Assembly: GCA_964228555.1 (NCBI GenBank)
Contig: CAXQZU010000009.1
Location: 14,778-78,777, forward strand
Length of the DNA: 64,000 bases
Direction of reading: 5' to 3'
Source: Planctomycetota bacterium
Lineage (GTDB): Bacteria; Planctomycetota; PLA2; JAEUHO01
Shown piece after piece: positions 16,020 to 55,863 of this stretch. The position numbers and the translations under genes were made by a program. Below the pieces are notes generated by a model. The model searched no databases. It was not told where the DNA came from and worked only from the letters and a program-made list of their open reading frames with translations. Within the stretch, counting starts at the first letter, position 1. The number at the start of each line of letters is the position of its first letter.

Positions 16020-16074
16020 GGCGCGCCGCGCGCGGCCCCCCCGCCGGCCGGGAGCCGGGGAGGGTTGGTGCCCG

Positions 16075-16150
16075 CGCTAGGACTCGAACCTAGGACCCGG
16101 TGATTAAGAGTCACCTGCTCTACCAACTGAGCTACGCGGGCAGCAGGACG
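16075..16150 (-). tRNA. tRNA-Lys (anticodon CTT)
   Basis: Reverse complement reads GCCCGCGTAGCTCAGTTGGTAGAGCAGGTGACTCTTAATCACCGGGTCCTAGGTTCGAGTCCTAGCGCGGGCACCA: canonical cloverleaf, encoded CCA. Confidence 0.9.
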
Positions 16151-29959: not shown

Positions 29960-30047
29960 TGGTGCGAGAGGAGGGAGTCGAACCCTCAGGGGCCTTGCGG
30001 CCGCAGGCTCCTAAGGCCTGTGCGTCTGCCAGTTCCGCCACTCTCGC
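29960..30047 (-). tRNA. tRNA-Leu (anticodon TAG)
   Basis: Reverse complement reads GCGAGAGTGGCGGAACTGGCAGACGCACAGGCCTTAGGAGCCTGCGGCCGCAAGGCCCCTGAGGGTTCGACTCCCTCCTCTCGCACCA: class II tRNA with long variable arm, perfect 7-bp acceptor stem, encoded CCA. Confidence 0.85.
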
Positions 30048-34362: not shown

Positions 34363-34365
34363 GCC

Positions 34366-35532: not shown

Positions 35533-35622
35533 GCCGCGGCCACGCCCTCGCCCGACGTCCGTCCCCCATCCCATCCCGACCTGCACACGGGCCCGCGAGG
35601 GCCCCAGCGCCCGGAGGCTCCC

Positions 35623-37029: not shown

Positions 37030-37061
37030 TCCCGGCGCGCGCCGGACCGGGCCATGCCCGG

Positions 37062-38309: not shown

Positions 38310-38326
38310 GCCGTGGAGTCTAGGCG

Positions 38327-39763: not shown

Positions 39764-39781
39764 GCCGCCTCCTCTCCCCGC

Positions 39782-40840: not shown

Positions 40841-41760
40841 AGCGGGACGGCCCCGCCCGTGCGCACCGGCGCCGGGCGCTCGGGCTCGATCAGCGTGCCC
40901 GCGCCCTCGTTGGTGAACAGCTCCAGCAGGATGGCGCTCTCGGCGAGGCCGGAGAGGATGTGTCCCGCCTCGCAGCCCCCATCCACGGCGTCGATGAGCG
41001 ACTCCACCTTGGGCGCCATGCCCCCGGAGATGATGCCGCTCTCCATGGCCGCGCGCGCCTCGGGCACCGTGAGGCGCGAGATGAGCGTGCGCGGGTCCTT
41101 GGGGTCGCGCAGCAGGCCGGGCACGTTGGTCAGCGAGATCAGCTTGGCCGCGCCCATCGAGCGCGCGATCACGCTTGCCACCGTGTCGGCGTTGATGTTC
41201 AGCACGTTGCCGTCGTCGTCGCTGCCCAGCGAGGAGATCACCGGCACGTAGCCGTTCTCCACCAGCAGCGTGAGCAGGTGCGGGTCGCAGGCGGTGACGT
41301 CGCCCACGTGGCCGAAGTCCACCAGCGTGGTCTCGCCCGTGGCAGCGTCCTTCATGGGCCGCGGCGGGCGGCGCACGGCGTGCAGGATGTTGCCATCCAC
41401 GCCCGAGAGGCCCACGCCGCGCACGCCCTGCGCACGCAGGGCCGAGAGGATCTCCACGTTGATCTGGCCTGCGAACACCATCTTGGCCACGTCCAGCGTC
41501 TCGGCGTCCGTCACGCGGCGCCCCTCGACCATCTTGGGCGTGAGGCCCAGGCGCCGGCTCAGGTCGCTGGCCTGCGGGCCGCCCCCGTGCACCACCACGC
41601 AGCGGATGTTGACGTGCACCAGCAGCGAGATGTCCTGGGCCAGCGAGCGCAGCGCAGCATCCTGGTCGGCGATCTCGCCGCCCAGCTTGATCACCATGGT
41701 GCGCCGGCGGTGGCGCCGCAGGTAGGGCAGCGCTTCCTTCAGCAGGGAGATGGTCGTCAC
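40837..41760 (-). CDS. argB: acetylglutamate kinase
   Basis: VIKLGG, VVHGGGPQ, NINAD, GGMAPK amino-acid-kinase motifs. Confidence 0.95.
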   Translation of the reverse strand: MTTISLLKEALPYLRRHRRRTMVIKLGGEIADQDAALRSLAQDISLLVHVNIRCVVVHGGGPQASDLSRRLGLTPKMVEGRRVTDAETLDVAKMVFAGQINVEILSALRAQGVRGVGLSGVDGNILHAVRRPPRPMKDAATGETTLVDFGHVGDVTACDPHLLTLLVENGYVPVISSLGSDDDGNVLNINADTVASVIARSMGAAKLISLTNVPGLLRDPKDPRTLISRLTVPEARAAMESGIISGGMAPKVESLIDAVDGGCEAGHILSGLAESAILLELFTNEGAGTLIEPERPAPVRTGGAVPL

Positions 41761-41821
41761 GGTCGGCTCCTCCCGGGCCCGGGCCTCGCCCAGGGCCCGT
41801 CCAGCATCGTGCGTCGAGGGG

Positions 41822-42859
41822 TCAGGGGGTCACGCCCAGCGCGCGGCACAGCGTGGCCTTCTGCACGTCCAGCCGCGCGCGGCCCTGGTCGATCACGGCG
41901 CTGGCCGGCGAGTCCAGCACCTCGTCGGCCACCTTCAGGTTGCGCCGCACCGGCAGGCAGTGCATGAAGATGGCCCGGTCGGCGGCCGCCATCGCCTGGC
42001 CGTCGACACGCCAGCCCCGGAGGCCCGCCAGCACCTCCGCCGCACGGGCCGGCTGGGCGTAGAGGTGGCTCGCGCCCCACGACTTGCCGTACAGCACCCG
42101 TGCCCCGCGCAGGGCGGCGGCGCGGTCGTGGGTCACGGACAGCGTGCCGCCCGCCGCCTGCGACAGGCGGCGCGCGTCGGCCATCACGCCGGGATCGAGG
42201 TCGAAGCCCTCGGGATGGGCCAGCACCACCTCGTGGCCCTCGCGACACATGGCCAGCAGCGCCGCGTTGGGCACGGCCATGGGCAGGGGCTTGATGTGCG
42301 GCAGCCAGCTCACCACCACCTTGTGCCGGCCGGGGCCGAGGCGGCGACGCACCGTGAGGGCATCGGCCAGCCCCTGGTGCGGGTGGTCGAAGGCGCTCTC
42401 GAGGTTGAGCACCGGCACGCGGCTGGCCCGCATCACGGCGCCCAGCACCGGCTCGCTGGCGTCCACGGCGGCATCCTTGAGGCCCGCGAAGGCGCGCACG
42501 CCCACGACGTCCACCATCGTGCCCAGCACGCCGAAGCCTTCCTTCACGTGCTCGGCCGCCTCCCCGTCCATCACCACGCCGTCGCGGTGCTCGAGGTTCC
42601 ACAGGCCGTTGCCCACCTGCAGGTAGACCGCATGCGCACCCAGGTCGAAGCAGGCGACCTCGAACGAGGTGCGCGTGCGCAGCGAGGCATTCCAGAACAC
42701 CATGGCGGCCCGGCGCCTGGAGAGCAGGTGCTCGCGGCCGCGCAGGCCGGCCAGCACCTCGGCCTGCTCCAGCAGCCAGGACCAGTCCCGCTGCGGCAGC
42801 GTGCGCAGCGAGGCGAGGTGCCAGGGAGCGATGCGTTGCGGGGTGGTGGGGCCGTCCAA
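41822..42859 (-). CDS. argF: ornithine / N-acetylornithine carbamoyltransferase
   Basis: SLRTRTSFE (STRTR), HPHQGLAD (HPxQ), HCLP motifs; the adjacent argE suggests the acetylornithine-type (ArgF') route. Confidence 0.8.
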   Translation of the reverse strand: MDGPTTPQRIAPWHLASLRTLPQRDWSWLLEQAEVLAGLRGREHLLSRRRAAMVFWNASLRTRTSFEVACFDLGAHAVYLQVGNGLWNLEHRDGVVMDGEAAEHVKEGFGVLGTMVDVVGVRAFAGLKDAAVDASEPVLGAVMRASRVPVLNLESAFDHPHQGLADALTVRRRLGPGRHKVVVSWLPHIKPLPMAVPNAALLAMCREGHEVVLAHPEGFDLDPGVMADARRLSQAAGGTLSVTHDRAAALRGARVLYGKSWGASHLYAQPARAAEVLAGLRGWRVDGQAMAAADRAIFMHCLPVRRNLKVADEVLDSPASAVIDQGRARLDVQKATLCRALGVTP

Positions 42860-42946
42860 CGGCGCGTACGTCCTCGGGAAGGGCCCGACGATACCGCCAG
42901 CGTGCCGCGAGGGCGAGCCCGCGCCAGCCGCCCGCGCCTGCGGTGC

Positions 42947-44170
42947 CTAGACGGCGGCCGTGGCCGGCACGGCGAGGGCCCGGGCCAGCGCCTGCACGAA
43001 GGGCTCCGCCTCCTCCAGCGTGAGCGTCAGGGGCGGCAGGAGGCGGATCTGGTGCGGGTCGGCCTCGCAGGAGCCCACGAGGATGCCGGCGTCGAACAGG
43101 GCCTGGATCACGGGCTTGGCCGGACGGTCGAGGTTGACGCCGCGGATCAGGCCCAGCCCCGACACGCTGCGCACGCCCGCGACGGCGCCGAGGCGCTCGG
43201 CCAGCGCCGCGCCCGTGCGCCGGGCACGCCCCGGCAGGTCCTCGTCGCGCACGATGCCGGCGGTGGCCGCGATGGCCGCACAGGCCAGCGGGCCGCCCCC
43301 GAAGGTGGTGCCCTGCTCGCCCAGCTTCATGCGCGCCGCGAGGTCCTCGCGCACGAACACGACGGCGGCGGGGAAGCCGCCGGCCACGCCCTTGGCGCCG
43401 GTGATCAGGTCGGGCGTGACGCCCACGTTCTCGCCGAAGAAGGTCGTGCCCGTGCGCCCGAAGCCCGTCTGCACCTCGTCGAAGACCAGCAGGGTGCCCG
43501 TGCGCGTGCACAGCTCGCGCAGGCCCCGGAAGTACTCGGGGGGCGCCATGCGGATGCCGCCCATCGACGGGATGGGCTCGAGGATCACGCAGGCCGCGCC
43601 GGCCCCCACCGCCGCCTCGGTGGCCGCCAGGTCGCCGTAGGGCACGTAGGCGTGCTGCCCGGGGATGGGATAGGCCGCGTCGCGGTACTTGGGCATGCCC
43701 GTGGCGCCCAGCGCCCCGAGGGTGCGGCCGTGGAAGCCGTCCACCAGCGACACCACCTGCATGCGGCCGGTGGCCTTGCGGGCGATCTTGAGCGCCGTCT
43801 CGTTGCTCTCGGTGCCGCTGTTGCAGAGGAACACGCGCTGCAGGCCCTTGGGCGCCAGCGTGGCGAGGCGCTCGGCCGCCAGCGCGCGGATGTCGCTGTA
43901 GACGACGTTGCTGTAGAAGACCAGCCGGCCCGCCTGCTCGCGCAGCGCCGCCACCAGCCGCGGATGGCAGTGGCCTGCCAGCGCCACGCAGTGGCCGCCG
44001 TAGAGGTCCAGGAAGCGCCGCCCCTCGACGTCGAAGACGTACGAGCCCCGGCCCTCGGCCAGCGCGATGGGCCACTTGGAGTAGGTCGGCACCTGCCAGC
44101 GGTCTTCCTGCTCGCGCGCGGACGCGTTGGTGGTGGGCAGGGCGCCAAGGGTGCGTGTGGGTTGCAGCAT
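42947..44170 (-). CDS. argD: acetylornithine aminotransferase (class III PLP aminotransferase)
   Basis: LCNSGTESNE, DEVQTGFGRTG, and the PLP-lysine region GAKGVAGGFP. Confidence 0.9.
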   Translation of the reverse strand: MLQPTRTLGALPTTNASAREQEDRWQVPTYSKWPIALAEGRGSYVFDVEGRRFLDLYGGHCVALAGHCHPRLVAALREQAGRLVFYSNVVYSDIRALAAERLATLAPKGLQRVFLCNSGTESNETALKIARKATGRMQVVSLVDGFHGRTLGALGATGMPKYRDAAYPIPGQHAYVPYGDLAATEAAVGAGAACVILEPIPSMGGIRMAPPEYFRGLRELCTRTGTLLVFDEVQTGFGRTGTTFFGENVGVTPDLITGAKGVAGGFPAAVVFVREDLAARMKLGEQGTTFGGGPLACAAIAATAGIVRDEDLPGRARRTGAALAERLGAVAGVRSVSGLGLIRGVNLDRPAKPVIQALFDAGILVGSCEADPHQIRLLPPLTLTLEEAEPFVQALARALAVPATAAV

Positions 44171-45198
44171 CAGAGCCCCAGTCCGGGCAGCCGCAGGCCG
44201 GTGGACTCGTCCAGCCCCGCCACCAGGTTCATGTTCTGCACGGCCGTGCCGGCCATGCCCTTGCCGAGGTTGTCGATGGCCACCGTGACCAGCGCCAGGC
44301 CGTCGGCATGGGTGACGTGCACGTCGGCCATGGCCGTGCCCACCACGCTACGCACCTCCGGGGGTTCCGCCACCAGCCGCACGAAGGGCTCGTCGGCGTA
44401 GGCTTGCTGGAAGGCCTCGGACACGGCGGCGGCCCCCCCGCGCACGGGCGCGAAGGCCGTCACGTGGATGCCGCGCGAGATGGGCGCGCTGTGCGGCACG
44501 AAGTCCACGCGGGCGTCCGGGCCCAGCGCCGCGACGATCTCGGGCAGGTGCTGGTGCTTGAGCGGCTTGTAGGCCTTGAGGTTCATGAAGCGCTCGGGGT
44601 GGTGCGTGCCCTTGCTGGGCTCGCTGCCCGAGCCCGAGGAGCCGGTGATGCTGGACACGCCCACCCGGCCCGCCAGCAGGCCGGCACGGGCCAGCGGCCA
44701 CAGCGCGAGGATGGTGGCGCTGGCATGGCAGCCCGGGTTGGCCACCAGGCGCGCCCGCCGGATGGCCTCGCGGTGCCCGCACTCGGGCAGGCCGTAGACC
44801 GCCTCGCGCAGGCGCGTGGGCGCCGGGTGCGGCAGGCCGTACCACGCCTCGTACTGGCTGGGGTCCTTGAGGCGGAAGTCGCCCGAGAGGTCGATCACCT
44901 TCAGGCGCGGGGCCTGGTCCAGCAAGCCGGGCGTCTGCGCGGCCGAGACGCCGTGCGGCTTGGCCTGGAACAGGATGTCGTTGGACGCCGCCAGCGCGCG
45001 CAGCGCCTCGGGCGTCTCCTGGCTGAAGCACAGGCTGGTGAAGCCGCGCAGGTGCGGCCACGTGTCGGCCAGCGGCTTGGTGCTCGTGCGGCTGGTGACC
45101 GCGGTGACCTCGACATGCGGGTGGGCGAGGAGGAGCCGGGCCAGCTCCATGCCGCCGTAGCCCGTGCCGCCGAGGATGGCGACCTTGAGTCGCGTCAT
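44170..45198 (-). CDS. argC: N-acetyl-gamma-glutamyl-phosphate reductase
   Basis: Internal ATG at 45198 of ORF 44170..46080. KVAILGGTGYGG, active site ANPGCHASA. ATGA overlap with the mdh stop. Confidence 0.9.
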   Translation of the reverse strand: MTRLKVAILGGTGYGGMELARLLLAHPHVEVTAVTSRTSTKPLADTWPHLRGFTSLCFSQETPEALRALAASNDILFQAKPHGVSAAQTPGLLDQAPRLKVIDLSGDFRLKDPSQYEAWYGLPHPAPTRLREAVYGLPECGHREAIRRARLVANPGCHASATILALWPLARAGLLAGRVGVSSITGSSGSGSEPSKGTHHPERFMNLKAYKPLKHQHLPEIVAALGPDARVDFVPHSAPISRGIHVTAFAPVRGGAAAVSEAFQQAYADEPFVRLVAEPPEVRSVVGTAMADVHVTHADGLALVTVAIDNLGKGMAGTAVQNMNLVAGLDESTGLRLPGLGL

Positions 45199-46124
45199 TG
45201 CAGGGACTTCACCTCGGCGATGCCCTTGGCCACGCTGGCTGCGGAGGCCTTGAGCGCCTGCGTCTCGGCTGCGTCCAGCGGCAGCTCCACGATGCGCGTC
45301 ACGCCCTTGGCGCCCAGGTGGATGGGCACGCCCAGGTACACGTCCTTGATGCCGTACTGGCCAGACAGCCACGTGCTGCAGGCCAGCAGGCGGTTGGTGT
45401 CGCCCAGCACGGCCTCGACCATCAGGGCTGCGCTGGCGCCCGGCGCGTAGTACGCGCTGCCCGTGCCCAGCAGCTTGACGATCTCCGCGCCGCCGTTGCG
45501 GGCGCGATCGCTCATGCGCTGGATGGCCTCGGCGGGCAGCAGCTGCGTGATCGGCACGCCGTTGACCGTCGAGAAGCGCGGCAGCGGCACCATCGTGTCG
45601 CCGTGGCCGCCCAGCACCATGGCCTTCACGTCCGTGGGCGAGCACTTCAGCTCCATCGCGATGAAGGTGGCGAAGCGGGCCGAGTCCAGGATGCCCGCCA
45701 TGCCCACCACGCGCTCGGGCGCGAAGCCCGTCACCTGCTGCACGACCCACGTCATCACGTCCAGCGGGTTGGTGACCACGATCACGATGCTGTGGGGCGC
45801 GTGCCGCTTGATGTGCTCGGCACTGGCGCGCGCGATCTCCACGTTCTTGCGCAGCAGGTCCATGCGGTCCATGCCGGGCTTGCGCGGGAAGCCCGCCGTG
45901 ACGACCACCACCTCGGCACCAGCGATCACTGCGGGATCGTTGCCGCCGGTGACCCGGCCGTCGAAGCCGAACACCGGGCCGCACTGCGACATGTCCAGCG
46001 CCTTGCCCGCGGGCACGCCCTCGGCGATGTCGAACACGGCGACGTCGGCCACGCCGCGGCTGGCCAGCTGGTAGGCACACGTCGCGCCCACGTTGCCGCC
46101 GCCGATGATCGCTACCTTGCGCAT
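45195..46124 (-). CDS. mdh: malate dehydrogenase (LDH-like MDH)
   Basis: Internal ATG at 46124 of ORF 45195..46973. KVAIIGGGNVG, GFPRKPGMDR, IVVTNPLD, MVLGGHGD. Confidence 0.9.
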   Translation of the reverse strand: MRKVAIIGGGNVGATCAYQLASRGVADVAVFDIAEGVPAGKALDMSQCGPVFGFDGRVTGGNDPAVIAGAEVVVVTAGFPRKPGMDRMDLLRKNVEIARASAEHIKRHAPHSIVIVVTNPLDVMTWVVQQVTGFAPERVVGMAGILDSARFATFIAMELKCSPTDVKAMVLGGHGDTMVPLPRFSTVNGVPITQLLPAEAIQRMSDRARNGGAEIVKLLGTGSAYYAPGASAALMVEAVLGDTNRLLACSTWLSGQYGIKDVYLGVPIHLGAKGVTRIVELPLDAAETQALKASAASVAKGIAEVKSLQ

Positions 46125-46272
46125 GATGGTGCTCCGGGCCGGTGGCGTGCTCGCACGCCCCGGGACCCGGAGCATAGGGGTCCGGCCCCCCGCGACAAGG
46201 GTCCCGGCCAGCGTCGCCACGGGCTCGGGAGCGGGCGCCGGGACCTCCGGCGAGGCGGGGGCGCGAGCGCCC

Positions 46273-47613
46273 CTAGCGCGGTGCGCGCGGCCCGTAGGCC
46301 TCCAGCAGCCGGCCCAGGCCCTGCTCGGCCTCCTCGTAGCGCCGGCGCGTGGCCTCGAAGGCGGCCAGCGTGCCCGCCACCCTGGCCTTGACCTCCTCGG
46401 CGTCGCCCCCGGGTGCCGCCAGCACCTCGCGCAGCAGGCGCGCGGCGTCCTCCATCTGCTCCATCGCCCGCACGTAGGTGAGCGCCGCCACGCGCAGGTT
46501 CTCGTAGGCCACCTGGTCGTCGTCCGGCTTGTTGGCCAGCTTCCAGGGGTGGGCCCGGATGTCCTCGGTGGCATCCAGCACGTTGCGCGCGGCATCCTCG
46601 AGCACCTCGAAGATCGTGCCGAGGTCGCCACCCGCCTCCTGCACGACGCGCCGGGCGTCCGGTCCCAGCCCCCGGAAGTCGGCCACGAGCCCCTTGAGCC
46701 CGTTGCCCAGGCCTTGCACCTCGTCGAGGAAGGCATCCACCTTGGGAGCGCCGCTGCGCACCAGCTCGTCCACCCGCGCCGAGGCGCTCTTGAGCGAGGC
46801 CAGCGCCTCCCCCACGTCGGCGCGCGCCTCCTCCACGGTCTCCTTGCCGGCCGCGGCCAGCGAGCGCAGGTCGTCGGTGGCGCGCAGGACGTTCGTGGCA
46901 ATCGCGTCCATGTCGCGCTCGACCACCGCGAGGCTGCGCTTGAGCGAGCCCAGCGCGGCCAGCGCCTCGTCACTCATGGCCTGCGTGTCCAGCGCCTCCA
47001 CCTTGCGGCGCACGTCCTGCAGCAGGGCCTTGGCCTCGTCCACGGTCGGCCCCAGCTGCCCGGTGGCGTCGATCAGGTGCTGCACCAGCTGGTCGACCTT
47101 CGATGCGATGTCGTCGAGGCTGGCGCCCTGCGTGCCCAGGATGGGCCGGGCCAGCGTCTCGGCCGCCCCCATCCACTCGCTGCTGATCCCGGGCACCAGC
47201 ACCAGGGAGGGCACGCCCGTGACCAGGTTGCTCTTGAGGCGGGCCGTGGTGCCCCGCGGCAGCTGCTGGTCGGCCCCCAGCTCCAGCTCGGCGAGCACGT
47301 ACACCTCGCGCACCTCCTGCGGGGTGCCCGCGGGCATGCGCGCGAGCCGTTCGCGGTCCGCTGCCGTCAGCTGCTCGCCGCGGCGCAGCTCGCTGCCCTG
47401 CGCGACGCGCGCCACGCGCCCCACCTCGAGCCCGAGGTAGTAGACCGTGTCGCCCACCACGGGCGCGGCGTCGCCCGGCGCGAAGCGCACCTGCCAGCGC
47501 GAGAAGCCCTCCATGAAGCCGCGGCCGGTGGCCACGAGCAGCAGGGCCAGCAGCGCCGCGATGCCACCCAGCACCACGAGGCCCGCGAGCAGCTCGGAAC
47601 GGCGGGAGTACAT
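46273..47613 (-). CDS. mlaD: MlaD/MCE-family substrate-binding protein with long C-terminal helical extension
   Basis: N-terminal TM plus MCE domain (VYYLGLEVGRV...LVTGVPSLVLVPG) followed by ~300 aa of coiled-coil. Confidence 0.8.
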   Translation of the reverse strand: MYSRRSELLAGLVVLGGIAALLALLLVATGRGFMEGFSRWQVRFAPGDAAPVVGDTVYYLGLEVGRVARVAQGSELRRGEQLTAADRERLARMPAGTPQEVREVYVLAELELGADQQLPRGTTARLKSNLVTGVPSLVLVPGISSEWMGAAETLARPILGTQGASLDDIASKVDQLVQHLIDATGQLGPTVDEAKALLQDVRRKVEALDTQAMSDEALAALGSLKRSLAVVERDMDAIATNVLRATDDLRSLAAAGKETVEEARADVGEALASLKSASARVDELVRSGAPKVDAFLDEVQGLGNGLKGLVADFRGLGPDARRVVQEAGGDLGTIFEVLEDAARNVLDATEDIRAHPWKLANKPDDDQVAYENLRVAALTYVRAMEQMEDAARLLREVLAAPGGDAEEVKARVAGTLAAFEATRRRYEEAEQGLGRLLEAYGPRAPR

Positions 47614-47626
47614 GCGCCAGCCTCCG

Positions 47627-48448
47627 CTAGAGCCGGAACAGGAGGAAGTAGTTGAGCACGGCGTCGCTCACCACGATGAGCAGGATGGAGGTGACCACCG
47701 CGCGGGTCGTGGCCCGGCCCACGCCCTCGGCGCCGCCCTGCACCTCGAAGCCCCGCCAGCAGCCCACGGCCCCGATGATCAAGCCGAAGATCGCCGCCTT
47801 GAGCACGCCGCGCCACACGTCGTCCGGTCCCAGCTGGGCCCACGCCTGGTGGAAGTAGGTCGACGCCGGCACGTCCAGCACGCCCACGGCCACCGCCAGG
47901 CCGCCCAGGATCCCCAGCCAGTCGCCCAGCAAGGTCAGGCAGGGCACCATCAGCACCACGGCCAGCAGGCGGGGCGCCACGACATAGCGCACCGGGTTGA
48001 GCGCCATGGTGCGGATGGCCGTGATCTCCTCGCGCACCACCATGGTGCCGATCTCCGCCGCCAGCGCCGCCCCGATGAAGCCGGTCATGATCACGCCCGT
48101 CAGCAGCGGGCCCAGCTCCAGCACCGTGCCCACGCTCATCAGGTTGCCGACGTAGTGCACGAAGCCCAGCGTCTCCAGGATGTTGCCCCCGATCAGGGCG
48201 AGGATCATCCCCACGAACACGTTGACGAGGAACACCACGCCCAGCGCGCGGGGTCCCACGCGCACGGACTGCTGCAGGAAGGCCGCCATGCCCACGGGCC
48301 GCCGGCGCCACGGCCCCAGCAGCAGGTGGCCGAGGCTGTCCCGCACCAGCAGGCCCAGGCCGCCCAGCAGGTGCACGAGGTCCAGCGCCCCCGCCCCGAG
48401 GGCGTGCACCGGCGTGCGCCGCGGCGGGCTCGTGGGGATCTGGCTCAA
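47627..48448 (-). CDS. mlaE: MlaE-family ABC transporter permease
   Basis: Typical MlaE/YrbE permease with EITAIRTMALNPVRYVVAPRLLA and 5 TM segments. Confidence 0.85.
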   Translation of the reverse strand: MSQIPTSPPRRTPVHALGAGALDLVHLLGGLGLLVRDSLGHLLLGPWRRRPVGMAAFLQQSVRVGPRALGVVFLVNVFVGMILALIGGNILETLGFVHYVGNLMSVGTVLELGPLLTGVIMTGFIGAALAAEIGTMVVREEITAIRTMALNPVRYVVAPRLLAVVLMVPCLTLLGDWLGILGGLAVAVGVLDVPASTYFHQAWAQLGPDDVWRGVLKAAIFGLIIGAVGCWRGFEVQGGAEGVGRATTRAVVTSILLIVVSDAVLNYFLLFRL

Positions 48449-48512
48449 CGGCCCGCTCGGCCTCCGGCTCCCAGGGGTGCAGGACCGGCCACGGCCCGGG
48501 CCCGCCCTGCCA

Positions 48513-48839
48513 TCACTTCAGTGCGTCGGCGCTGGTGGCACGGATGTCGAAGATCGAGGTGAGGTTCGACAGGCGGAACAGGTTCTGCACGGAGGTGGAG
48601 AGCCCGCACAGGCGCAGCCGGCCGCCGTACTTGTTCGTGGCCTGCAGCGCCTCGATGAGCGTGGCCAGCCCGCTGGAGTCGATGAAGGCCACCGCCGTCA
48701 GGTCCACGACCACGGGCGTGGCCTTTTCCTGCAGCGCCGCCCGCAGCTGGGTGCGGAGGTCGGGCGACGTATGCATGTCCACCTGCCCCTCGACGGTGAA
48801 GATGGCAGCGGTGCCCTGGCTGGTGCGGTTGATCTTCAT
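48513..48839 (-). CDS. STAS-domain protein (anti-sigma factor antagonist / MlaB-like)
   Basis: 108 aa, VVDLTAVAFIDSSGLATL with the conserved phosphorylatable Ser. Confidence 0.8.
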   Translation of the reverse strand: MKINRTSQGTAAIFTVEGQVDMHTSPDLRTQLRAALQEKATPVVVDLTAVAFIDSSGLATLIEALQATNKYGGRLRLCGLSTSVQNLFRLSNLTSIFDIRATSADALK

Positions 48840-48866
48840 GCAGGTGGTTCCTGTGGGGGCGTGATC

Positions 48867-49301
48867 CTACGCGAGCGCGGGCGGGGCTGCACGCTTGACG
48901 AGCGTGAGGGTGGTCCCCCCGAAGTCGTTCTTGCGGTACTCCACCGAGTCCATCGTGGCACGCATCAGGTGCACGCCCAGGCCGCCGGGGCGGATCTCGT
49001 CGAGGGGGCGAGACTGGATCTGGCTGGGGTCCACGAAGCGGCCCCGGTCCACCACCTCCACCTGGACCCAGCCGGGGCGGGCACGCAGGTCGATGTCCAC
49101 GGGCTGGTCGTGGCGGTCACGGTAGGCGTGGCGGATGACGTTGGAGACGGCCTCGCTGACAGCCAGCAGCAGCGTGTCCCGGGCCTCGTCGCCGAAGCCC
49201 GCCAGCTCGGCGCCCTGCTGGGCCAGCGCGCGCACCAGCGGCAGGTAGCGCGGGTCGCTGCACAGGCTGACGTGGATGCGGTCGGGGGCGGCCTCGCTCA
49301 C
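48867..49301 (-). CDS. anti-sigma regulatory factor (RsbW/SpoIIAB-like serine kinase, HATPase_c)
   Basis: C-terminal 144 aa of ORF 48867..49664. N-box AVSEAVSNVIRHAY, G-box GGLGVHLM. GTG at 49301 forms a GTGA overlap with the upstream lipoprotein stop. Confidence 0.7.
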   Translation of the reverse strand: MSEAAPDRIHVSLCSDPRYLPLVRALAQQGAELAGFGDEARDTLLLAVSEAVSNVIRHAYRDRHDQPVDIDLRARPGWVQVEVVDRGRFVDPSQIQSRPLDEIRPGGLGVHLMRATMDSVEYRKNDFGGTTLTLVKRAAPPALA

Positions 49302-49720
49302 GGCTGGCTCCCGCCGGAGGCCGTGCGACCCGCCCACCACGCACGCCACGCCTCGACCTGCGCACGCTGCTCGTCGGGGCTGGCGTAGGGCCGGTAGCCC
49401 GTGTCGTGGCCCGTGAGCAGGCGCAGGCTGCGGCCTGCCATCAGGCGCACGGTGGCGTCCTCGTCGTCGAGCAGCTCGATCAAGGCCGGCACCAGGCCGT
49501 CGAGGCCGAGGCGGGCCGCCTCGCCCGCGGCCTGCGCCCGTATGGAGGGGTTCGGGCTGGCAAGGTCCTCGGCCGGCTTCAATGGGCGCGGCGGGCTGCT
49601 GCACGCACCGAGGGCGAGCAGGGCCAGCAGCAGGGCCGTCCCGCAACCTGGGCGCACCCGCCACCCGTCCCCGGAGCCGGCGCGAAGGCTGCTCCGGCCA
49701 AGGACCGTCATCGGGCGCAC
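49298..49720 (-). CDS. HEAT-repeat lipoprotein with Trp-rich C-terminal motif
   Basis: Lipobox LLALLALGACSS; HEAT repeat VPALIELLDDEDATVRLMAGRSL; tail LRLLTGHDTGYRPYASPDEQRAQVEAWRAWW is shared with several paralogs in this window. Confidence 0.6.
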   Translation of the reverse strand: MRPMTVLGRSSLRAGSGDGWRVRPGCGTALLLALLALGACSSPPRPLKPAEDLASPNPSIRAQAAGEAARLGLDGLVPALIELLDDEDATVRLMAGRSLRLLTGHDTGYRPYASPDEQRAQVEAWRAWWAGRTASGGSQP

Positions 49721-49849: not shown

Positions 49850-50836
49850 TCAGGCCAGCGAGCCCTGCTCCCGGTACCACCGTGCGGTGGCCTGGAGGCC
49901 CTCCGCCAGCGACAGGCGCGCCCGCCATCCCATGACACGGGCCACGGCCTCGCCCGAGCACACCCAGTGCCCCTCGCCCACCTCGGCCACCCGCTCGCGG
50001 CTCAAGAGCAGCGGGCGCCGTGCCAGCTGCCCCAGCGCCTCGGCGCATGACCCCAGCAGGCGCGCCGCAGACGACGGCAGGGCGAGCCGCCTCGGCTCAC
50101 GGCCCACCGCGACGGCGAGCGCTCGCGCCAGCCCCTCCTGCGTCACGGGCGGGTCGCTCGTGATGAACCAGGCCTTGCCCCGTGCCGCAGGCGAGCGGCC
50201 CGCGACCAGCATGCCCGCCGCCAGGTCCTCGACGTGCACGAGGCTCAGGCGCCGGCTGCCTGCGCCCAGCACGGGCAGCAGGCCGCGAGCCACGGCCTGG
50301 AACAGCGCGAGGAAGTCGCGGTCACGGGGCCCGTACACGGCCGGCGGCCGCACGATCACCCACGACAGGTCCCCGCCCAGTGCCTGCAGCCCCTGCTCGG
50401 CCAGGCGCTTGCTGCGCCCGTAGGTCGTGACGGGCCGTAGCGGCGCATCCTCGGCGAGGGCACGCCCGTCGGCCGAGGGCCCCACCGCCGCCAGCGAGGA
50501 GCAGAAGACGAAGCGCTGCACGCCCGCGGCGGCCGCATGCCGGGCCAGCGTCAGGGTGGCGTCGGCATTCACGCGCACCATCTGGCGCCGCGTGCGCGAG
50601 CGCGTGAGCGCGCCCAGGTGCCACACCTCGTCGACGCCGCGCACGGCGTCGGCCAGCCCACGGCCGCTCTCGAGATCGCCCGCCACCACCTCGACGGGCA
50701 GGCCGCGCAGGCGCTCGGGCACCCCCTGCCGCGCGAGGCAACGGAGCTGGGCACCCCCGGCCAGCAGCCGCTCGACGAGGTGGCTGCCGACGAAGCCATG
50801 GGCACCGGTCACGAGGGCCTTCACCCGCGCGAGCAT
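49850..50836 (-). CDS. NAD-dependent epimerase/dehydratase family reductase (candidate ceramide reductase CerR)
   Basis: Start MLARVKALVTGAHGFVGSHL (ATG 50836) inside ORF 49850..50884. Extended SDR Rossmann motif and YxxxK-like YGRSK. Divergent from the spt gene. Confidence 0.75.
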   Translation of the reverse strand: MLARVKALVTGAHGFVGSHLVERLLAGGAQLRCLARQGVPERLRGLPVEVVAGDLESGRGLADAVRGVDEVWHLGALTRSRTRRQMVRVNADATLTLARHAAAAGVQRFVFCSSLAAVGPSADGRALAEDAPLRPVTTYGRSKRLAEQGLQALGGDLSWVIVRPPAVYGPRDRDFLALFQAVARGLLPVLGAGSRRLSLVHVEDLAAGMLVAGRSPAARGKAWFITSDPPVTQEGLARALAVAVGREPRRLALPSSAARLLGSCAEALGQLARRPLLLSRERVAEVGEGHWVCSGEAVARVMGWRARLSLAEGLQATARWYREQGSLA

Positions 50837-51030
50837 ACGGCCGTCGGCACGGCCCCCGCCGCGGCGGCCGCCCGCCACGCCCACGCTCGCTGCCGGCGTG
50901 GTTCACTGTCGGCATCCCCCCTACGATGAGACGAGACCGCGGGCGCAGGCGGCCCGGTCGCCAGGCCTCCCCGGGCCCCAAGACCAGCCCTCGCGTCCCC
51001 GGCCGCCCCACCCCACGAGGACGTCCCGCC

Positions 51031-52227
51031 TTGGACCTGTTCGAGAAGGCCGCCCGCTTCGCGCGCGCTGACCTGCTCAAGCAAGCGGGCCTCTACCCGT
51101 ACTTCCGGGCCATCGAGGAGAGCGAGGGCGGGCGCCGGGTGCGCATCGGCGGCCGCACCATCGTGATGGCCGGGTCGAACAACTACCTGGGCCTCACCCA
51201 CGACCCCCGCGTGCTGGAGGCGGCGCGCGAGGCCGTCAGCCGCTACGGCGCGGGCTGCACCGGCTCGCGCTTCCTGAACGGCACGCTGGCCCTCCACGAG
51301 CAGCTGGAGGAGCGCCTGGCGCGCTTCCTGGGCCAGGAGGCCTGCATCACCTCGGGCACCGGCTTCCAGACCAACGTGGGCGCGATCTCGGCACTGGCCT
51401 CCAGCCGCGAGGACCTGATCTTCGGCGACCGCGACAACCACGCCTCCATCATCGATGGCTGCCGCCTCTCCTTCGCCAAGCAGCTGAAGTACCGCCACAA
51501 CGACATGGACGACCTCGGGCGCCTGCTGCGCGAGACGCCCGTGAGCGAGGGCGGCTCGCGGCTGGTGGTGACCGATGGCGTGTTCAGCATGCTGGGCGAC
51601 CTGGCCCCGCTGCAGCGCATGCTGCCGCTGGCGCACGAGCACGGTGCCCGCGTGATGGTGGACGACGCACACGCCCTGGGCGTGCTGGGCGCGCGCGGGC
51701 GCGGGACGGCCGAGCACCTGGGCGTGCACGACCAGGTCGACCTCATCAGCGGCACCTTCAGCAAGAGCATGGCCTGCCTGGGCGGCTTCGTGGCCGGCCC
51801 GCGCGTCGTGGTGGACCTGATCAAGCACACCAGCCGCTCGGTCATCTTCTCGGCCAGCATGACGCCCGCCAGCGTGGCCACCGTGCTGGCCTGCCTCGAC
51901 ATCGTCGAGCGCGAGCCGGCACGTCGCGAGCGCCTGTGGGCCAACGTGCGGCGCATGAAGCAAGGCTTCCAGGAGATGGGCCTCGAGGTCATCGACGGGG
52001 GCAGCCCCATCCTGAGCGTGGTGGTGGGCGAGGAGCAGCCCACGCTGGAGTTCAACAACCTGCTCTTCGCGCACGGCGTGTTCGTCAATCCCGTGATCCC
52101 GCCGGCCGTGCCGCAGGGCATGTGCCTGCTGCGCACCTCGTACATGGCCACCCACACCGACGAGGACCTCGACGCCATCCTCGCGGGCTTCAAGAAGGTG
52201 GGCGAGCGCCTGCGCGTCCTGCGCTAG
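51031..52227 (+). CDS. spt: serine palmitoyltransferase-like alpha-oxoamine synthase (class II PLP aminotransferase)
   Basis: LDLFEKAARFARADLLKQAGLYPYFRAIE matches the SPT N-terminus; PLP-lysine motif GTFSKSMACLGG; N(N)YLGL. Start placed at TTG 51031 (GAGGA 11 nt upstream); ORF track starts at 50926 with an unlikely Arg/Pro-rich leader. Confidence 0.8.
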   Translation: MDLFEKAARFARADLLKQAGLYPYFRAIEESEGGRRVRIGGRTIVMAGSNNYLGLTHDPRVLEAAREAVSRYGAGCTGSRFLNGTLALHEQLEERLARFLGQEACITSGTGFQTNVGAISALASSREDLIFGDRDNHASIIDGCRLSFAKQLKYRHNDMDDLGRLLRETPVSEGGSRLVVTDGVFSMLGDLAPLQRMLPLAHEHGARVMVDDAHALGVLGARGRGTAEHLGVHDQVDLISGTFSKSMACLGGFVAGPRVVVDLIKHTSRSVIFSASMTPASVATVLACLDIVEREPARRERLWANVRRMKQGFQEMGLEVIDGGSPILSVVVGEEQPTLEFNNLLFAHGVFVNPVIPPAVPQGMCLLRTSYMATHTDEDLDAILAGFKKVGERLRVLR

Positions 52228-52245
52228 GCGGCCCGCGTCCCGCCC

Positions 52246-53388
52246 GTGCCCTTGCAGGACCTCGAGGTGCGCGCCACGCGCCCGGGCCGCGAGGAACGCC
52301 TGTTCCTGCGCCTTCCCTACCGCCTCTACGACGGCCAGCCCGGGTGGGTCCCCCCGCTGCGCATGGCCGAGGCGGCCCTGCAGGACCGCCGCTCCAACCC
52401 CTTCTTCCGGCACAGCGAGGCCCAGCACTTCCTCGCATGGCAGGGCGGACGCGTGGTGGGCCGCGTGGCCGCCATCGAGAACCGGCGCCACAACGAGGTG
52501 CACGCCGAGCGCATCGGATTCTTCGGGTTCCTGGACGCCGAGCCCCGCGTGCAGGTGTTCCGGGCGCTGCTGGAGGCTGCGGCCGCGTGGTGCCGGCAGC
52601 GCGGCCTGCTCGCGCTGCGCGGACCCGCCTCCTACAGCACCAACGACACCTGCGGCACGCTGGTCGAGGGCTTCGGGCAGCGGCCCGCGGTGCAGATGCC
52701 CTGGAACCCGCCGGGCACCGACGCGCTGCTGCAGTCCGCCGGGCTGCGTCCGGCCCAGGACCTGGTGGCCTGCTGGCTGGCCGCGTCGCTGCCCGCCCCC
52801 GAGCGCTTCGAGCGGGTCGTGTCGCGCCGCCTCGAGCGCAGCGGCATCCGGCTGCGCCCGCTGGACCTGCGCGACTTCGCGCGCGAGGTGGAGGTGCTGC
52901 GCGACCTCTACAACCGCTCCTGGGAACGCAACTGGGGCTTCGTGCCGGCCACCGAGGAAGAGTTCCGCCACGCGGCCAAGGACCTCAAGTCCGTGGTCTC
53001 TCCGCAGCTCTCCTGCGTGGCCGAGGAGCAAGGCCGCCCGGTGGGATTCTGCGCCGTGCTGCGGGACGTGAACGCCGTGCTGGCCCCGCGCGGCCACGGG
53101 GGCCTGTTGCCCACCAACCTCTGGCGCCTGCTGGTGGGGCTGCCGCGCGTGCGCCGCTACCGCGTGATCGCGCTGGGCGTCGTGCCGGAGGCGCGCGGCA
53201 AGGCCATCAACGAGGCGTTCTTCCTGCATGCCCACGCTGCCTGCCGCCGCCTGGGCCATGAGGGCGCCGAGGCCTCGTGGATCCTCGCGGACAACCAGCG
53301 CATGCTGGCGCCCATCGAGGCCATGGGCGGCGTGGTGACCAAGCGCTACCGGCTCTACGAGCAGCCCTTGGCGCCGTCCACGCCCTAG
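52246..53388 (+). CDS. GNAT-fold N-acyltransferase-like protein (candidate bacterial ceramide synthase bCerS)
   Basis: 380 aa, 18 nt downstream of spt; approximately 380-aa acyl-CoA N-acyltransferase-like architecture (RLPYRLYDGQPGWVPPL, NPFFRHSE, FGFLDA). Confidence 0.65.
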   Translation: MPLQDLEVRATRPGREERLFLRLPYRLYDGQPGWVPPLRMAEAALQDRRSNPFFRHSEAQHFLAWQGGRVVGRVAAIENRRHNEVHAERIGFFGFLDAEPRVQVFRALLEAAAAWCRQRGLLALRGPASYSTNDTCGTLVEGFGQRPAVQMPWNPPGTDALLQSAGLRPAQDLVACWLAASLPAPERFERVVSRRLERSGIRLRPLDLRDFAREVEVLRDLYNRSWERNWGFVPATEEEFRHAAKDLKSVVSPQLSCVAEEQGRPVGFCAVLRDVNAVLAPRGHGGLLPTNLWRLLVGLPRVRRYRVIALGVVPEARGKAINEAFFLHAHAACRRLGHEGAEASWILADNQRMLAPIEAMGGVVTKRYRLYEQPLAPSTP

Positions 53389-53409: not shown

Positions 53410-54822
53410 CTAGCCGCGCGGCTGGCCCTGCCGCAGGCGCACGTCGGCCTCGTTGTCCTTCCACCAGGCCCCCCAGGCCTTCTGGGCGCGCTTGAGCTCG
53501 TTGCGGGGCTGGCCGGCCTGGAAGGGCTCCTGGTGGCCCGTGATGGCGATGAGCGCCTGCTGGGCCGCGGTCTGGACCAGCTGCTCCCGGTCGTCCAGCG
53601 CCTCGATCAGGCCCGGCACGGCGTCACAGGCCTTGAGCTCGCGCAGCGCGTCGGCGGCGCCCAGCCGCACGTAGAAATCCCGATGCGACTTGAGCGCCGC
53701 GAGCAGGGCGTTGACCGCCCGCAGGTCCTTGAGCTCGGCCAGCTTGATGGTGGCGTTGAAGGCGATGCCCGCGTTGGGATCCTTGAGCAGGGCCACCCAG
53801 TGCTGCAGCATGCCGTCGTCGGCCGTGGGCGCCGTGGGTGCGGCGGGCCCCGGTGCCGCGGGCGCCGCGGGTGCTGCCGGAGCCGGCGCGGGCGGGGCGG
53901 GCACCGGCGCCGCCGGCGCAGCCTCGGGCTGCCGCGCCCGCGCAGGCTGGCCGCTGGCGCGCGCCTGCACGTCGCGCAGCCAGTCGTAGACCTGCCGCAG
54001 GCGGGCATCCAGCGTGCGCAGCGTCGCGTCCGAGGCCTCCAGGCGGGACTGCGTGCCCGCCTGCAGATCCTTCACCTGCTCGGACAGTGCCTGCAGCTCG
54101 GTGCGCACAGCCTGGCCCGCCTGCACCTGCTGGGCCAGCGCCGCCTGCTGCGCATCGAGGATGCCCAGGCGCTCGTCCGGGGCGCGGCGCGCGTCGGCCA
54201 GCGTGCGCGCGGCCTGCTCCTCGATGGCGGCCGCCACCGCCGGGCTCACGGCCTGCGTCTGCGCCGGGCGCAGGCGGTCGTAGAGCACCCAGCCGGCGGC
54301 GCCGAGAGCCAGCAAGGCCAGCAGCGTGGCCAGCGGCGCGCCCCGGCGCGGCGGCGCCAGCAGGCGACGGCCCACGCAGGCGGGGCACAAGGCCCTGCCG
54401 CCCGCCCGCACAGCCCTGCCCGTGCCGAAGTCCGCCTCGGGCACCGACTGGCTGCAGCCCGCGCAGAAGGAAATGGTCACCGGGGCGCTCCCCGCCGGCA
54501 GCTTGGCCACGGACGGCGGCAGGTCCAGCCCCAGCGGGGCGGTGCGCGCGCCCACCGGCCGGTCCGCCAGCTGCTCGAGGGCGAGGCAGGCCGCGCACGC
54601 GTTGCGGCCGGCCACGCTGCGAGCCTTGCCCAGCGCCACGTCCGCGTCCGGGATCGACTCGTGGCAGGCGTCGCAGAAGCGCAGCTCGATGCCCGCGCCC
54701 GGAGCCGACGCCGCGATGCAGGCTGCGCAGGCATGCCGGCCGCCGGCCGTGCGCGCGCGGCCCGCCGCGAAGTCGGCGTCCGGGATCGACGCCTGGCACG
54801 CCTCGCAGAATCGGATGTCCAT
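53410..54822 (-). CDS. triple MJ0042-type zinc-ribbon / TM / coiled-coil / HEAT-repeat protein with Trp-rich C-terminus
   Basis: ATG 54822 (MDIRFCEAC). Three tandem CxxC...CxxC ribbons (RFCEACQASIPDADF...ACAAC; RFCDACHESIPDADV...ACAAC; SFCAGCSQSVPEADF...CPAC), TM LATLLALLALGAAGWVLY, coiled coil, PAPAAPAAP linker, HEAT repeats, tail IAITGHQEPF...AWGAWW. Confidence 0.7.
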   Translation of the reverse strand: MDIRFCEACQASIPDADFAAGRARTAGGRHACAACIAASAPGAGIELRFCDACHESIPDADVALGKARSVAGRNACAACLALEQLADRPVGARTAPLGLDLPPSVAKLPAGSAPVTISFCAGCSQSVPEADFGTGRAVRAGGRALCPACVGRRLLAPPRRGAPLATLLALLALGAAGWVLYDRLRPAQTQAVSPAVAAAIEEQAARTLADARRAPDERLGILDAQQAALAQQVQAGQAVRTELQALSEQVKDLQAGTQSRLEASDATLRTLDARLRQVYDWLRDVQARASGQPARARQPEAAPAAPVPAPPAPAPAAPAAPAAPGPAAPTAPTADDGMLQHWVALLKDPNAGIAFNATIKLAELKDLRAVNALLAALKSHRDFYVRLGAADALRELKACDAVPGLIEALDDREQLVQTAAQQALIAITGHQEPFQAGQPRNELKRAQKAWGAWWKDNEADVRLRQGQPRG

Positions 54823-54915
54823 GCATGCCTCGCACACGGGGGACGCCGGCCGTCCGCCGCCCCCCCATCCTACCCGCGCACGCCACGCAGGGGGCGGCCC
54901 CTGCCGGCGCAAGGC

Positions 54916-55863
54916 CTAGCCGGCCTTGGGCTGCTTGAGCCGCTCGCGCACCGCCGCCTCGTTGCGGTTCCACCACTCCAGCATCTCGCCGCGAGCCTTG
55001 CTGCGCTCGGCGGGACGGGCCTGCGGCGTCAGCCCGAGGTCGTGCTCGGTGATGAGGCGCAGGGACTTGCCCGCCTGCTGCGCGACCATCTGCGTCTTGT
55101 CCTTCAACGCATCGGCCAGGGCCGGCACCGCGTCGCAGGCACGCAGGTCGCCCAGGGCGCTGGCCGCGGCCTGGCGCATCAGGTAGTCGTCGTGCGCGGC
55201 CAGGATCTTCACCAGCTTGGGGACGGACGCCATCACCTGCCGCCGCGCCACGACGGTGATCGCGGGGTAGATGGTCTCGGGCTGGTCGCTGTCGAGGTCG
55301 GCGAGCGCCTTCTCCACGATGGCCTTCGCGACCAGCGGATCCTCCTGCACGCTGGGCAGCTCCGGCTTGGGCAGGCCAGGCAGGGTGGCCTTCGGGGCCG
55401 CCGGCGTCGCCGCGGGCTTGGGGCCTGCTGCGGGCGCCGCGGCCACCGCCACGGGGCGCTCCTCCACGGCCTTCACGCGGGCCTCGAGGGCGGCCAAGGC
55501 CTTCGTCTCGCGGTCCAGGCCGGCGCTCAGGGTCGTGAGCACGGCCTCCAGCTCCTCCAGCTTGCCCGAGGCCAGGTCGGCTGAGGACTGCACGCGGGCC
55601 TGCGCTTGCTGCAGCCCCTCGGTCGCGCCCGAGAGCAGGTCCTGCAGCCGCTTGAGGCGCTGGTCCAGCTCGCGCTGGGCCGACTGGTCGCGCGCCGCCG
55701 CCGCGCGCTGCACTTCCTCGGCCAGCTGGCGCGCCACCTTGTCCACCTCGGCGCTCGACAGCGCGACGGTGACGGCGGCCGGGGCCTCGGCGCCACGCGG
55801 CAGCAGGGACACGACGCCGGCCGCCAACGCCAGCAGCGACACGACCAGTGCGACCTTGTTCAT
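54916..55863 (-). CDS. membrane-anchored coiled-coil / HEAT-repeat protein, paralog of the C-terminal half of 53410-54822
   Basis: Signal/TM MNKVALVVSLLALAAGVVSLL, coiled coil, Pro/Ala linker, HEAT repeats, tail LRLITEHDLGLTPQ...EMLEWW. Confidence 0.7.
   Translation of the reverse strand: MNKVALVVSLLALAAGVVSLLPRGAEAPAAVTVALSSAEVDKVARQLAEEVQRAAAARDQSAQRELDQRLKRLQDLLSGATEGLQQAQARVQSSADLASGKLEELEAVLTTLSAGLDRETKALAALEARVKAVEERPVAVAAAPAAGPKPAATPAAPKATLPGLPKPELPSVQEDPLVAKAIVEKALADLDSDQPETIYPAITVVARRQVMASVPKLVKILAAHDDYLMRQAAASALGDLRACDAVPALADALKDKTQMVAQQAGKSLRLITEHDLGLTPQARPAERSKARGEMLEWWNRNEAAVRERLKQPKAG

Follow-up and report, generated by a model that had tools for sequence, protein, structure and literature searches.

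The Spt/bCerS/CerR pathway for bacterial ceramide synthesis is already published, as is its concept. In Caulobacter crescentus, the enzymes are Spt (CC_1162/CCNA_01220), bCerS (CC_1154/CCNA_01212), and CerR (CC_1164/CCNA_01222); the pathway needs five genes, and the three named here are spread through a 17-gene region. In the present study, we analyzed a 64,000-nucleotide stretch of DNA from a Planctomycetota bacterium (assembly GCA_964228555.1, contig CAXQZU010000009.1, positions 14,778 to 78,777; hereafter the window, 64 kb in length), in which three contiguous genes encode members of the same three enzyme families: an Spt-like synthase, a bCerS-like N-acyltransferase with a GNAT fold, and a CerR-like reductase. 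This trio adds a member to the published pathway. Judging from the sequences, it is quite likely that the three genes form a minimal bacterial module for making the (dihydro)ceramide backbone.

The Caulobacter genes have literature-defined orthologues in E. coli and Sphingomonas. The gene epi is CC_1164, ECD_02852, and Swit_3897, respectively (PMC9386255), and the gene aca is CC_1154, yghO ECD_02850, and Swit_3908 (PMC9386255, Fig 9 legend). CC_1154 and Swit_3908 share 45% identity at 97% coverage (E 5e-109; PMC11324152 table S2B), and Swit_3905 and Swit_3906, encoding LptF2 and LptG2, are numbered just before Swit_3908 (PMC11324152). In the E. coli B/BL21-type cluster (spt-acpR-epi-aasR plus yghO, ECD_02850-02854), the GNAT gene adjoins the spt operon, as it does in the window. 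However, the E. coli cluster encodes an acyl carrier protein (ACP) together with a fatty acyl-AMP ligase and has lptF/lptG paralogues on its flanks, whereas the window has no such ACP or ligase gene. In the sphingolipid producers of the Bacteroidota, spt is not clustered with bCerS and CerR (PMC11334938).

The published loci closest in kind to the window trio come from a Black Sea survey (Ding et al., ISME J 2024, PMC11334938), in which Spt-like proteins were reported in 138 metagenome-assembled genomes (MAGs) of Planctomycetota; according to the survey, Spt-like genes in general often have bCerS and CerR homologues co-located with them. The "Spt-like" clade B clusters of that survey are of the same kind as the window trio, with bCerS and CerR homologues near an Spt-like gene on the same scaffold, and the phyla that carry them are not among the classical producers. 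The survey was made in bulk and was homology-based; it does not describe the lineage or the locus of the window, whose source is another MAG, labelled "Planctomycetia bacterium" at NCBI.

The gene layout claimed in the initial annotation was reproduced in full, including the coordinates, the sequence motifs, the 18-nt gap, the divergent reductase, and the GNAT protein of about 380 aa. The reductase gene lies on the minus strand, with its longest open reading frame (ORF) at 49850..50884 (GTG at 50884, 344 aa). The synthase gene lies on the plus strand at 51031..52227 (TTG at 51031, 398 aa), and the GNAT gene follows on the same strand at 52246..53388 (380 aa), with 18 nt between the synthase stop at 52227 and the GNAT GTG start at 52246. 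The high G+C content (about 74-78% in the window) filled the ORF list with spurious long frames, and a filter on codon-position composition (third-position GC >0.86, second-position GC <0.62) left a clean gene set. The third-position GC was 0.92 for the reductase, 0.96 for the synthase, and 0.96 for the GNAT gene. Because all three ORFs passed this filter, they are real genes and not high-GC artefacts. An antisense ORF of 812 aa (50821..53259, minus strand), which covers the synthase and GNAT genes, failed the filter and was discarded as a high-GC artefact.

The longest ORF of the synthase begins further upstream, at ATG 50926 (50926..52227, plus strand, 433 aa). The start at TTG 51031 is more likely, because a GAGGA sequence (51017-51021) stands 9 nt upstream of it and the resulting 398 aa fit the 397-400 aa of the relatives. 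For the reductase, ATG 50836 (328 aa, MLARVKALVTGAHGFVG...) may be the start instead of GTG 50884, and the choice between the two sets the length of the intergenic region at 146-194 nt. This divergent region between the reductase and the synthase (50885..51030 as read from the DNA) presumably holds promoters in both directions; no sigma-70-like consensus was found in it, and scans of the locus for promoters, terminators, and Rfam families returned nothing useful.

The synthase matched the Pfam family Aminotran_1_2 (PF00155, E 1.5e-52), in keeping with a fold-type I PLP alpha-oxoamine synthase, and contains both the LYPYFRAIE and the GTFSKS motifs, the latter holding the lysine that binds pyridoxal phosphate (PLP). 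Its best NCBIfam model was SerpalmtaseCFB (491 bits), followed by SerpalmtaseBetaP (408 bits), with the AlphaP Spt model at 328 bits; the window synthase thus resembles the CFB type more than the alpha-proteobacterial one. The models of other enzymes scored lower than SerpalmtaseCFB, with 387 bits for the Kbl-related model, 385 for Kbl, and 376 for BioF. A similar ranking was obtained against the PDB sequences, in which the Spt of Sphingobacterium multivorum scored 398 bits and all non-Spt chains at most 304 bits. Sphingomonas Spt reached 279-288 bits, Kbl at most 265, cysteate-C-fatty acyltransferase 259 and 255, and CqsA 131. These results agree with the earlier assignment of the protein to the Spt type, since it groups with Spt and not with BioF or Kbl. 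Readings of the synthase as a cysteate acyltransferase (for sulfonolipids) or a CqsA-like enzyme were rejected, as their NCBIfam and PDB scores were far below those of Spt.

The closest characterized enzyme is S. multivorum Spt (PDB 3A2B and the 8GUH series), which is soluble and takes acyl-CoA directly, consistent with the window having no ACP. The synthase and 3A2B share 49.5% identity across 390 columns. Taking the 18 residues named as the PLP-L-serine site of S. multivorum Spt in PMC10196870, we found 16 identical in the synthase; Ala79 is replaced by Thr and Met271 by Ile. The equivalents of Asn52, Gly80, Ser81, His138, and Ser243, which form the network around the serine hydroxyl and carboxylate, are all identical. 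Ala79 contacts the substrate side chain through a water molecule (PMC10196870), and Thr at this position is common to the synthase and E. coli Spt, whose product is 3-oxo-sphinganine (PMC9386255). Compared with Sphingomonas Spt, the equivalents of H159, D231, H234, K265, and R390, which comprise the PLP lysine and the catalytic His/Asp/His/Arg residues, are kept; R378 is Ile in the synthase and is also absent from E. coli Spt. In BLASTP, the synthase was 38% identical to its Sphingomonas counterpart and 39% to E. coli Spt, the latter along almost the whole protein. Because of the Spt scores and the conserved active site, we consider the protein to be an Spt-like enzyme, most likely with L-serine as its substrate. 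We use "Spt-like" rather than the name of a curated equivalog because every NCBIfam Spt cut-off is missed, as discussed below.

The GNAT protein had been proposed as a bCerS candidate, and the comparison with the proteobacterial loci supports this. Through the literature-defined orthologues of Caulobacter bCerS, it can be placed in the YghO/CC_1154 family as a bCerS-like tandem-GNAT N-acyltransferase. In BLASTP, two reference proteins aligned with it at 32% identity and 97-98% coverage: YghO of E. coli, with E 7e-58, and the Sphingomonas protein that corresponds in position to Swit_3908, with E 7e-63. The two references, YghO and an N-acetyltransferase of Sphingomonas parapaucimobilis, were found by tblastn of the GNAT protein in an annotated plasmid collection. 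The E. coli locus runs lptF and lptG, then the spt-like alpha-oxoamine synthase (AOS), ACP, epimerase, and fatty acyl-AMP ligase, and then yghO. The Sphingomonas locus runs NAD(P)H-binding protein, ACP, AOS, ATP-binding protein, lptF, lptG, desaturase, and N-acetyltransferase; the last gene stands behind lptF-lptG-desaturase in the same order as Swit_3908 stands behind Swit_3905 and Swit_3906. The Spts of these reference loci pass the NCBIfam equivalog cut-offs (833>670 and 600>500). The Sphingomonas and E. coli reference sets are 35-47% identical to each other, and the window proteins are about as far from either set as the two sets are from each other.

General databases said little about the GNAT protein. 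Its Pfam match was weak (Acetyltransf_1 PF00583, E 1.4e-7, residues 218-354), no NCBIfam model was matched, and no PDB sequence was found at E<=1. The reference bCerS orthologues of E. coli and Sphingomonas likewise match no NCBIfam model. An AlphaFold2 model (39 homologues) had a predicted confidence (pLDDT) of 92.2 and consisted of two GNAT halves, and its best Foldseek matches in the PDB were tandem GNATs, namely 2WPW of the clavulanate pathway, MAB_4324 (7Q3A), and MshD (1OZP). These solved tandem GNATs, together with Eis, have the same fold of two GNAT halves as the window protein (Foldseek probability 1.0, TM about 0.57-0.61), but they are only 11-19% identical to it in structural alignments, without detectable sequence similarity, and what they transfer, to unrelated acceptors, is an acetyl or another small acyl group. 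The C-terminal half carries a V-x-P-E-A-R-G motif (residues 313-318), in which P314 and R317 are invariant; from its place in the GNAT fold, this segment would be the CoA-binding loop. The family is large. A word-indexed search gave 1476 proteins at E<=0.001 among 8000 candidates scored, and an exhaustive search gave 6977 representatives at 50% clustering, 1121 of them with E<=1e-30. A 380-aa NCBI protein in the same 90%-identity cluster is annotated just as "N-acetyltransferase family protein". With the protein labelled generically at NCBI and no NCBIfam model for its family, the practical gain of the present assignment is mainly better annotation.

The association of the three genes was conserved well beyond the window. 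We collected 80 loci in one scan of species-representative genomes, for which a GNAT alignment served as the query, and added four earlier loci, giving a sample of 84, against which the three window proteins were compared by tblastn. The scan loci belonged to Bacteroidota, Gemmatimonadota, Acidobacteriota, Planctomycetota, Verrucomicrobiota, Ignavibacteria, Chloroflexota, Bdellovibrionales, Elusimicrobia, Zixibacteria, an actinomycete, and others, and none of the 80 came from Caulobacter or Sphingomonas. An Spt-like gene stood beside the GNAT gene in 63/84 loci, a reductase homologue stood beside the Spt or GNAT gene in 59/84, and both accompanied the GNAT gene in 55/84; some loci without neighbours end at contig ends. 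The gene order varied, with the reductase either divergent upstream or directly behind the GNAT gene with overlapping codons. In relatives whose GNAT protein is 54-60% identical to that of the window, the arrangement of the trio is unchanged, and AOS-GNAT-SDR operons (SDR, short-chain dehydrogenase/reductase) were found on Rubrobacter and Streptomyces plasmids. With the proteins homologous to literature-defined orthologues and the linkage present in 55 of the 84 loci, the original proposal that the trio matches the Spt, bCerS, and CerR families of the bacterial ceramide pathway is supported; the outcomes named beforehand as refuting it were checked, and none of them refuted it.

Single-chain fusions of the first two enzymes also occurred. 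The proteins P0147 (780 aa) and P0238 (777 aa), and P0214 (648 aa, N-terminally truncated), join an Spt-like AOS at the N-terminus to a tandem GNAT of the YghO/bCerS type at the C-terminus. Their AOS halves had SerpalmtaseCFB as the best match (470 and 539 bits), with a gene-calling artefact as a possible source of the joined chains.

Based on these results, the following pathway can be proposed. The Spt-like PLP enzyme would join L-serine and a long-chain acyl thioester into 3-ketodihydrosphingosine, with acyl-CoA as the probable thioester, given that the genes nearby include none for a dedicated ACP or an acyl-ACP synthetase. The tandem GNAT of the bCerS/YghO family would then N-acylate the long-chain base from acyl-CoA, and the CerR-like extended SDR would reduce the 3-keto group with NAD(P)H to yield dihydroceramide. 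The order of acylation and reduction is disputed even for Caulobacter (PMC11087976, PMC11324152). Acylation before reduction would fit the natural Spt-GNAT fusions as well as the Spt-GNAT-SDR order that is common among the operons, and the fusion proteins bear on this question in bacteria. An active cluster would mean that ceramide-based lipids are made within the class Planctomycetia, to which the host MAG belongs, and the host would be a sphingolipid producer. Planctomycete envelopes are unusual. A compact three-gene pathway without a dedicated ACP system would also be easy to reconstitute.

The cluster in the window is the three-gene form and not the five-gene proteobacterial form (spt, acpR, aasR, cerR, cerS), because both AcpR and AasR are absent. 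A search of the flanks for a cognate ACP and acyl-ACP synthetase had been suggested, and neither was found: no homologue of the ACP or the fatty-acyl-AMP ligase was detected by tblastn in the 64-kb window or among the Pfam-scanned neighbours. The related loci were similar in this respect. Across the 84 loci, an AasR-like match was clear in L055 only and weak in L037, and no ACP match was found. Relative to Caulobacter, the window trio is contiguous, and no LptF2/LptG2, kinase, or head-group genes stand near it; identity to the proteobacterial orthologues is just 30-39%.

Several observations weigh against the proposed pathway. The synthase falls under every NCBIfam Spt equivalog cut-off (CFB 491<640, BetaP 408<500, AlphaP 328<670), whereas E. 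coli Spt passes that of SerpalmtaseBetaP (600>500). The comparison with Caulobacter itself runs through the literature-defined orthologues of E. coli and Sphingomonas. Besides AcpR and AasR, the window has no head-group, kinase, or glycosyltransferase genes, and we found no experimental or lipidomic evidence of sphingolipids for any planctomycete in the searchable literature. The reductase adds further points of this kind. Its top NCBIfam match was HpnA (TIGR03466), at 158 bits over the full length with a cut-off of 368. It is 30-35% identical to proteobacterial CerR and also 31-34% identical to HpnA and other extended SDRs. Among its matches in the annotated plasmid collection, an Indioceanicola SDR from a sugar context (133 bits) ranked above the Sphingomonas positional CerR (112 bits). 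In a neighbour-joining tree, the clade that unites it with linked SDRs and CerR had a bootstrap of only about 30/100. Sequence alone does not set the reductase apart from HpnA-like SDRs.

The CerR assignment of the reductase, the weakest of the three, is made mainly because of the conserved linkage and not because of its sequence, which is consistent with membership of the CerR clade. The protein matched Epimerase (PF01370, E 1.5e-36) and has an N-terminal GxxGxxG motif (VTGAHGFVGSH) and a YxxxK motif (YGRSK), both of which are also found in the reference CerRs. Like these, it starts straight at the Rossmann motif, and a signal peptide is not apparent in its sequence. BLASTP gave 35% identity over 325 aa with the Sphingomonas positional CerR (E 9e-39) and 30% identity with the epimerase of the E. 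coli cluster, the ECD_02852 equivalent (E 1e-36). The two references share just 35% identity with each other, and they also give HpnA as a weak top NCBIfam match (83-93 bits). The best annotated relatives of the reductase were the SDRs directly behind the GNAT gene in the AOS-GNAT-SDR operons of the Rubrobacter (157 bits) and Streptomyces (142 bits) plasmids, with HpnA at 91-100 bits in the same collection. In the tree of 71 SDRs, the window reductase, 57 linked SDRs, and three proteobacterial CerRs formed one clade. HpnA, GalE, UXS, and others lay outside it, the exception being one long-branch Pseudomonas O-antigen SDR inside; HpnA was outside the clade of the window reductase and CerR in 74/100 bootstrap replicates. 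For the claim of a CerR-like reductase, the end-to-end homology to CerR and the linkage in 59 of 84 loci stood, while the sequence proved no closer to CerR than to HpnA or to some SDRs from sugar contexts. A reading of the protein as HpnA or a sugar epimerase was rejected on the conserved linkage and the sub-threshold HMM (hidden Markov model) scores, for which sequence by itself would be insufficient. No hopanoid genes are present in the window.

Other explanations of the trio were also considered. The same module could use another amino acid, such as glycine, alanine, or cysteate, and its product would then be, in place of canonical ceramide, an N-acyl lipid of the 1-deoxy- or nor-sphingoid kind or a capnine-like lipid of the sulfonolipid type. 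The missed Spt cut-offs would fit such a substrate, as would the changes at two of the 18 active-site positions, including the Ala79 equivalent with its water-mediated contact to the substrate side chain, and the Ile in place of Sphingomonas R378; PMC11334938 calls such proteins just "Spt-like" and discusses (1-deoxy)ceramides. However, the Thr at the Ala79 position and the loss of R378 are both common to E. coli Spt, which makes 3-oxo-sphinganine (PMC9386255), the serine-network residues are all identical, and the cysteate-C-fatty acyltransferase structures scored 259 and 255 bits compared with 398 for Spt. We therefore regard a different amino acid substrate as unlikely. It is very unlikely that the trio makes, in place of a membrane sphingolipid, an N-acyl amino-ketone or amino-alcohol that is diffusible or specialised and acts as a signal or natural product, in the manner of CqsA-type or secondary-metabolite AOS enzymes. 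CqsA-type scores of the synthase were far lower (NCBIfam 220 bits, PDB 131 bits), the trio has housekeeping genes around it and no further biosynthetic genes in the window, and most of the phyla in which the family occurs are Gram-negative, as would suit a membrane-lipid trait. In favour of such a product, the same trio occurs on actinomycete plasmids, with a condensation-domain protein next in Streptomyces sp. NBC_01001, and AOS enzymes serve several natural-product pathways (PMC12006855).

A chance adjacency, in which an ordinary small-molecule acetyltransferase and a nucleotide-sugar or hopanoid epimerase happen to stand beside a BioF/Kbl-type enzyme, is strongly disfavoured and is in our judgment extremely improbable. 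The generic database names of the closest relatives ("GNAT/N-acetyltransferase", "NAD-dependent epimerase/dehydratase") would allow it, and so would the reductase, with HpnA as its top NCBIfam match and an identity to HpnA and sugar-context SDRs that equals its identity to CerR. Nevertheless, the HpnA score is under half of the family cut-off, and the GNAT protein has no sequence match in the PDB but reaches E about 1e-60 with the YghO/bCerS orthologues. In addition, the trio is linked in 55/84 loci from many phyla and in several orders, including overlapping stop and start codons, and fused AOS-GNAT proteins occur. Compared with these alternatives, a ceramide-type module remains the preferred reading of the trio.

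The surroundings of the trio were also inspected. Directly downstream of the reductase, and like it on the minus strand, lie genes for a HEAT-repeat protein (49298-49720), an RsbW-like HATPase_c_2 protein (48867-49298), a STAS protein (48513-48839), MlaE (47627-48448), and an MlaD-like protein of 446 aa (46273-47613); no MlaF ATPase was found in this block (46273-49720). Two relatives (L001:1732-5468 and L002:1816-5469), with trio proteins that share 46-76% identity with those of the window, preserve the order of these genes; among the 80 genome-scan loci, which come from other lineages, none was found to have the block. Because their conservation is confined to the close relatives L001 and L002, the Mla/STAS/HEAT genes were not counted as parts of the module. 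They could form a lineage-specific unit for lipid transport and partner switching. A bolder possibility is that the trio is half of a larger sphingolipid locus, with these genes as a dedicated, partner-switch-regulated transporter of ceramide to the outer membrane, comparable to the role proposed for LptF2/LptG2 in Caulobacter, and, as a separate point, that the fusions and the operon order independently support acylation first as a general bacterial route; taken as a whole, we consider this rather unlikely.

On the other side of the trio, HEAT-repeat proteins, an HU-like protein, and large unannotated proteins are encoded. Together with the one at 49298-49720, the HEAT-repeat proteins flanking the trio number three in all (53410-55863 and 49298-49720, minus strand). 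In the 500-aa HEAT protein at 53410-54912, Cys-x-x-Cys segments recur in the N-terminal half, and in L001-L003 the trio likewise has similar HEAT proteins on its flanks. Further away, the window contains 2-oxoacid dehydrogenase E2/E1/E3 genes (33040-37029) and four tRNA genes (237-435, 16066-16141, and 29960-30047). The region 33040-46130 also encodes a Kelch-repeat protein, a malate/lactate dehydrogenase, and arginine-biosynthesis proteins, namely argH-like, M20 peptidase, amino-acid kinase, ornithine carbamoyltransferase (OTCase), class-III aminotransferase, and argC-like. Because of this housekeeping context, the locus is chromosomal and not obviously an island.

Related clusters were observed on plasmids. 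On plasmid 1 of Rubrobacter radiotolerans, the AOS-GNAT-SDR operon is followed by a protein of the lipoteichoic acid (LTA)-synthase family, and on the linear plasmid of Streptomyces sp. NBC_01001 the trio is followed by the condensation-domain protein. The IncP plasmid pPNP1 of Pseudomonas sp. JS425 carries a cluster of the five-gene type in which the yghO-like gene is broken by an IS5 element. The plasmid-borne location in several bacteria suggests horizontal transfer of the ceramide-type module. On megaplasmids of Roseomonas spp., a GNAT homologue (38-39% identical) adjoins a nucleotidyltransferase-family gene, an arrangement that resembles CC_1153 beside CC_1154 in Caulobacter. In E. coli, the cluster of spt, ACP, epimerase, and ligase plus yghO, beside the extra lptF/lptG (record NZ_MG591698.1), was present at >=80% coverage in 4068/5426 complete genomes. 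This cluster is known from PMC9386255; RefSeq names its AOS "spt" and gives YghO no functional name.

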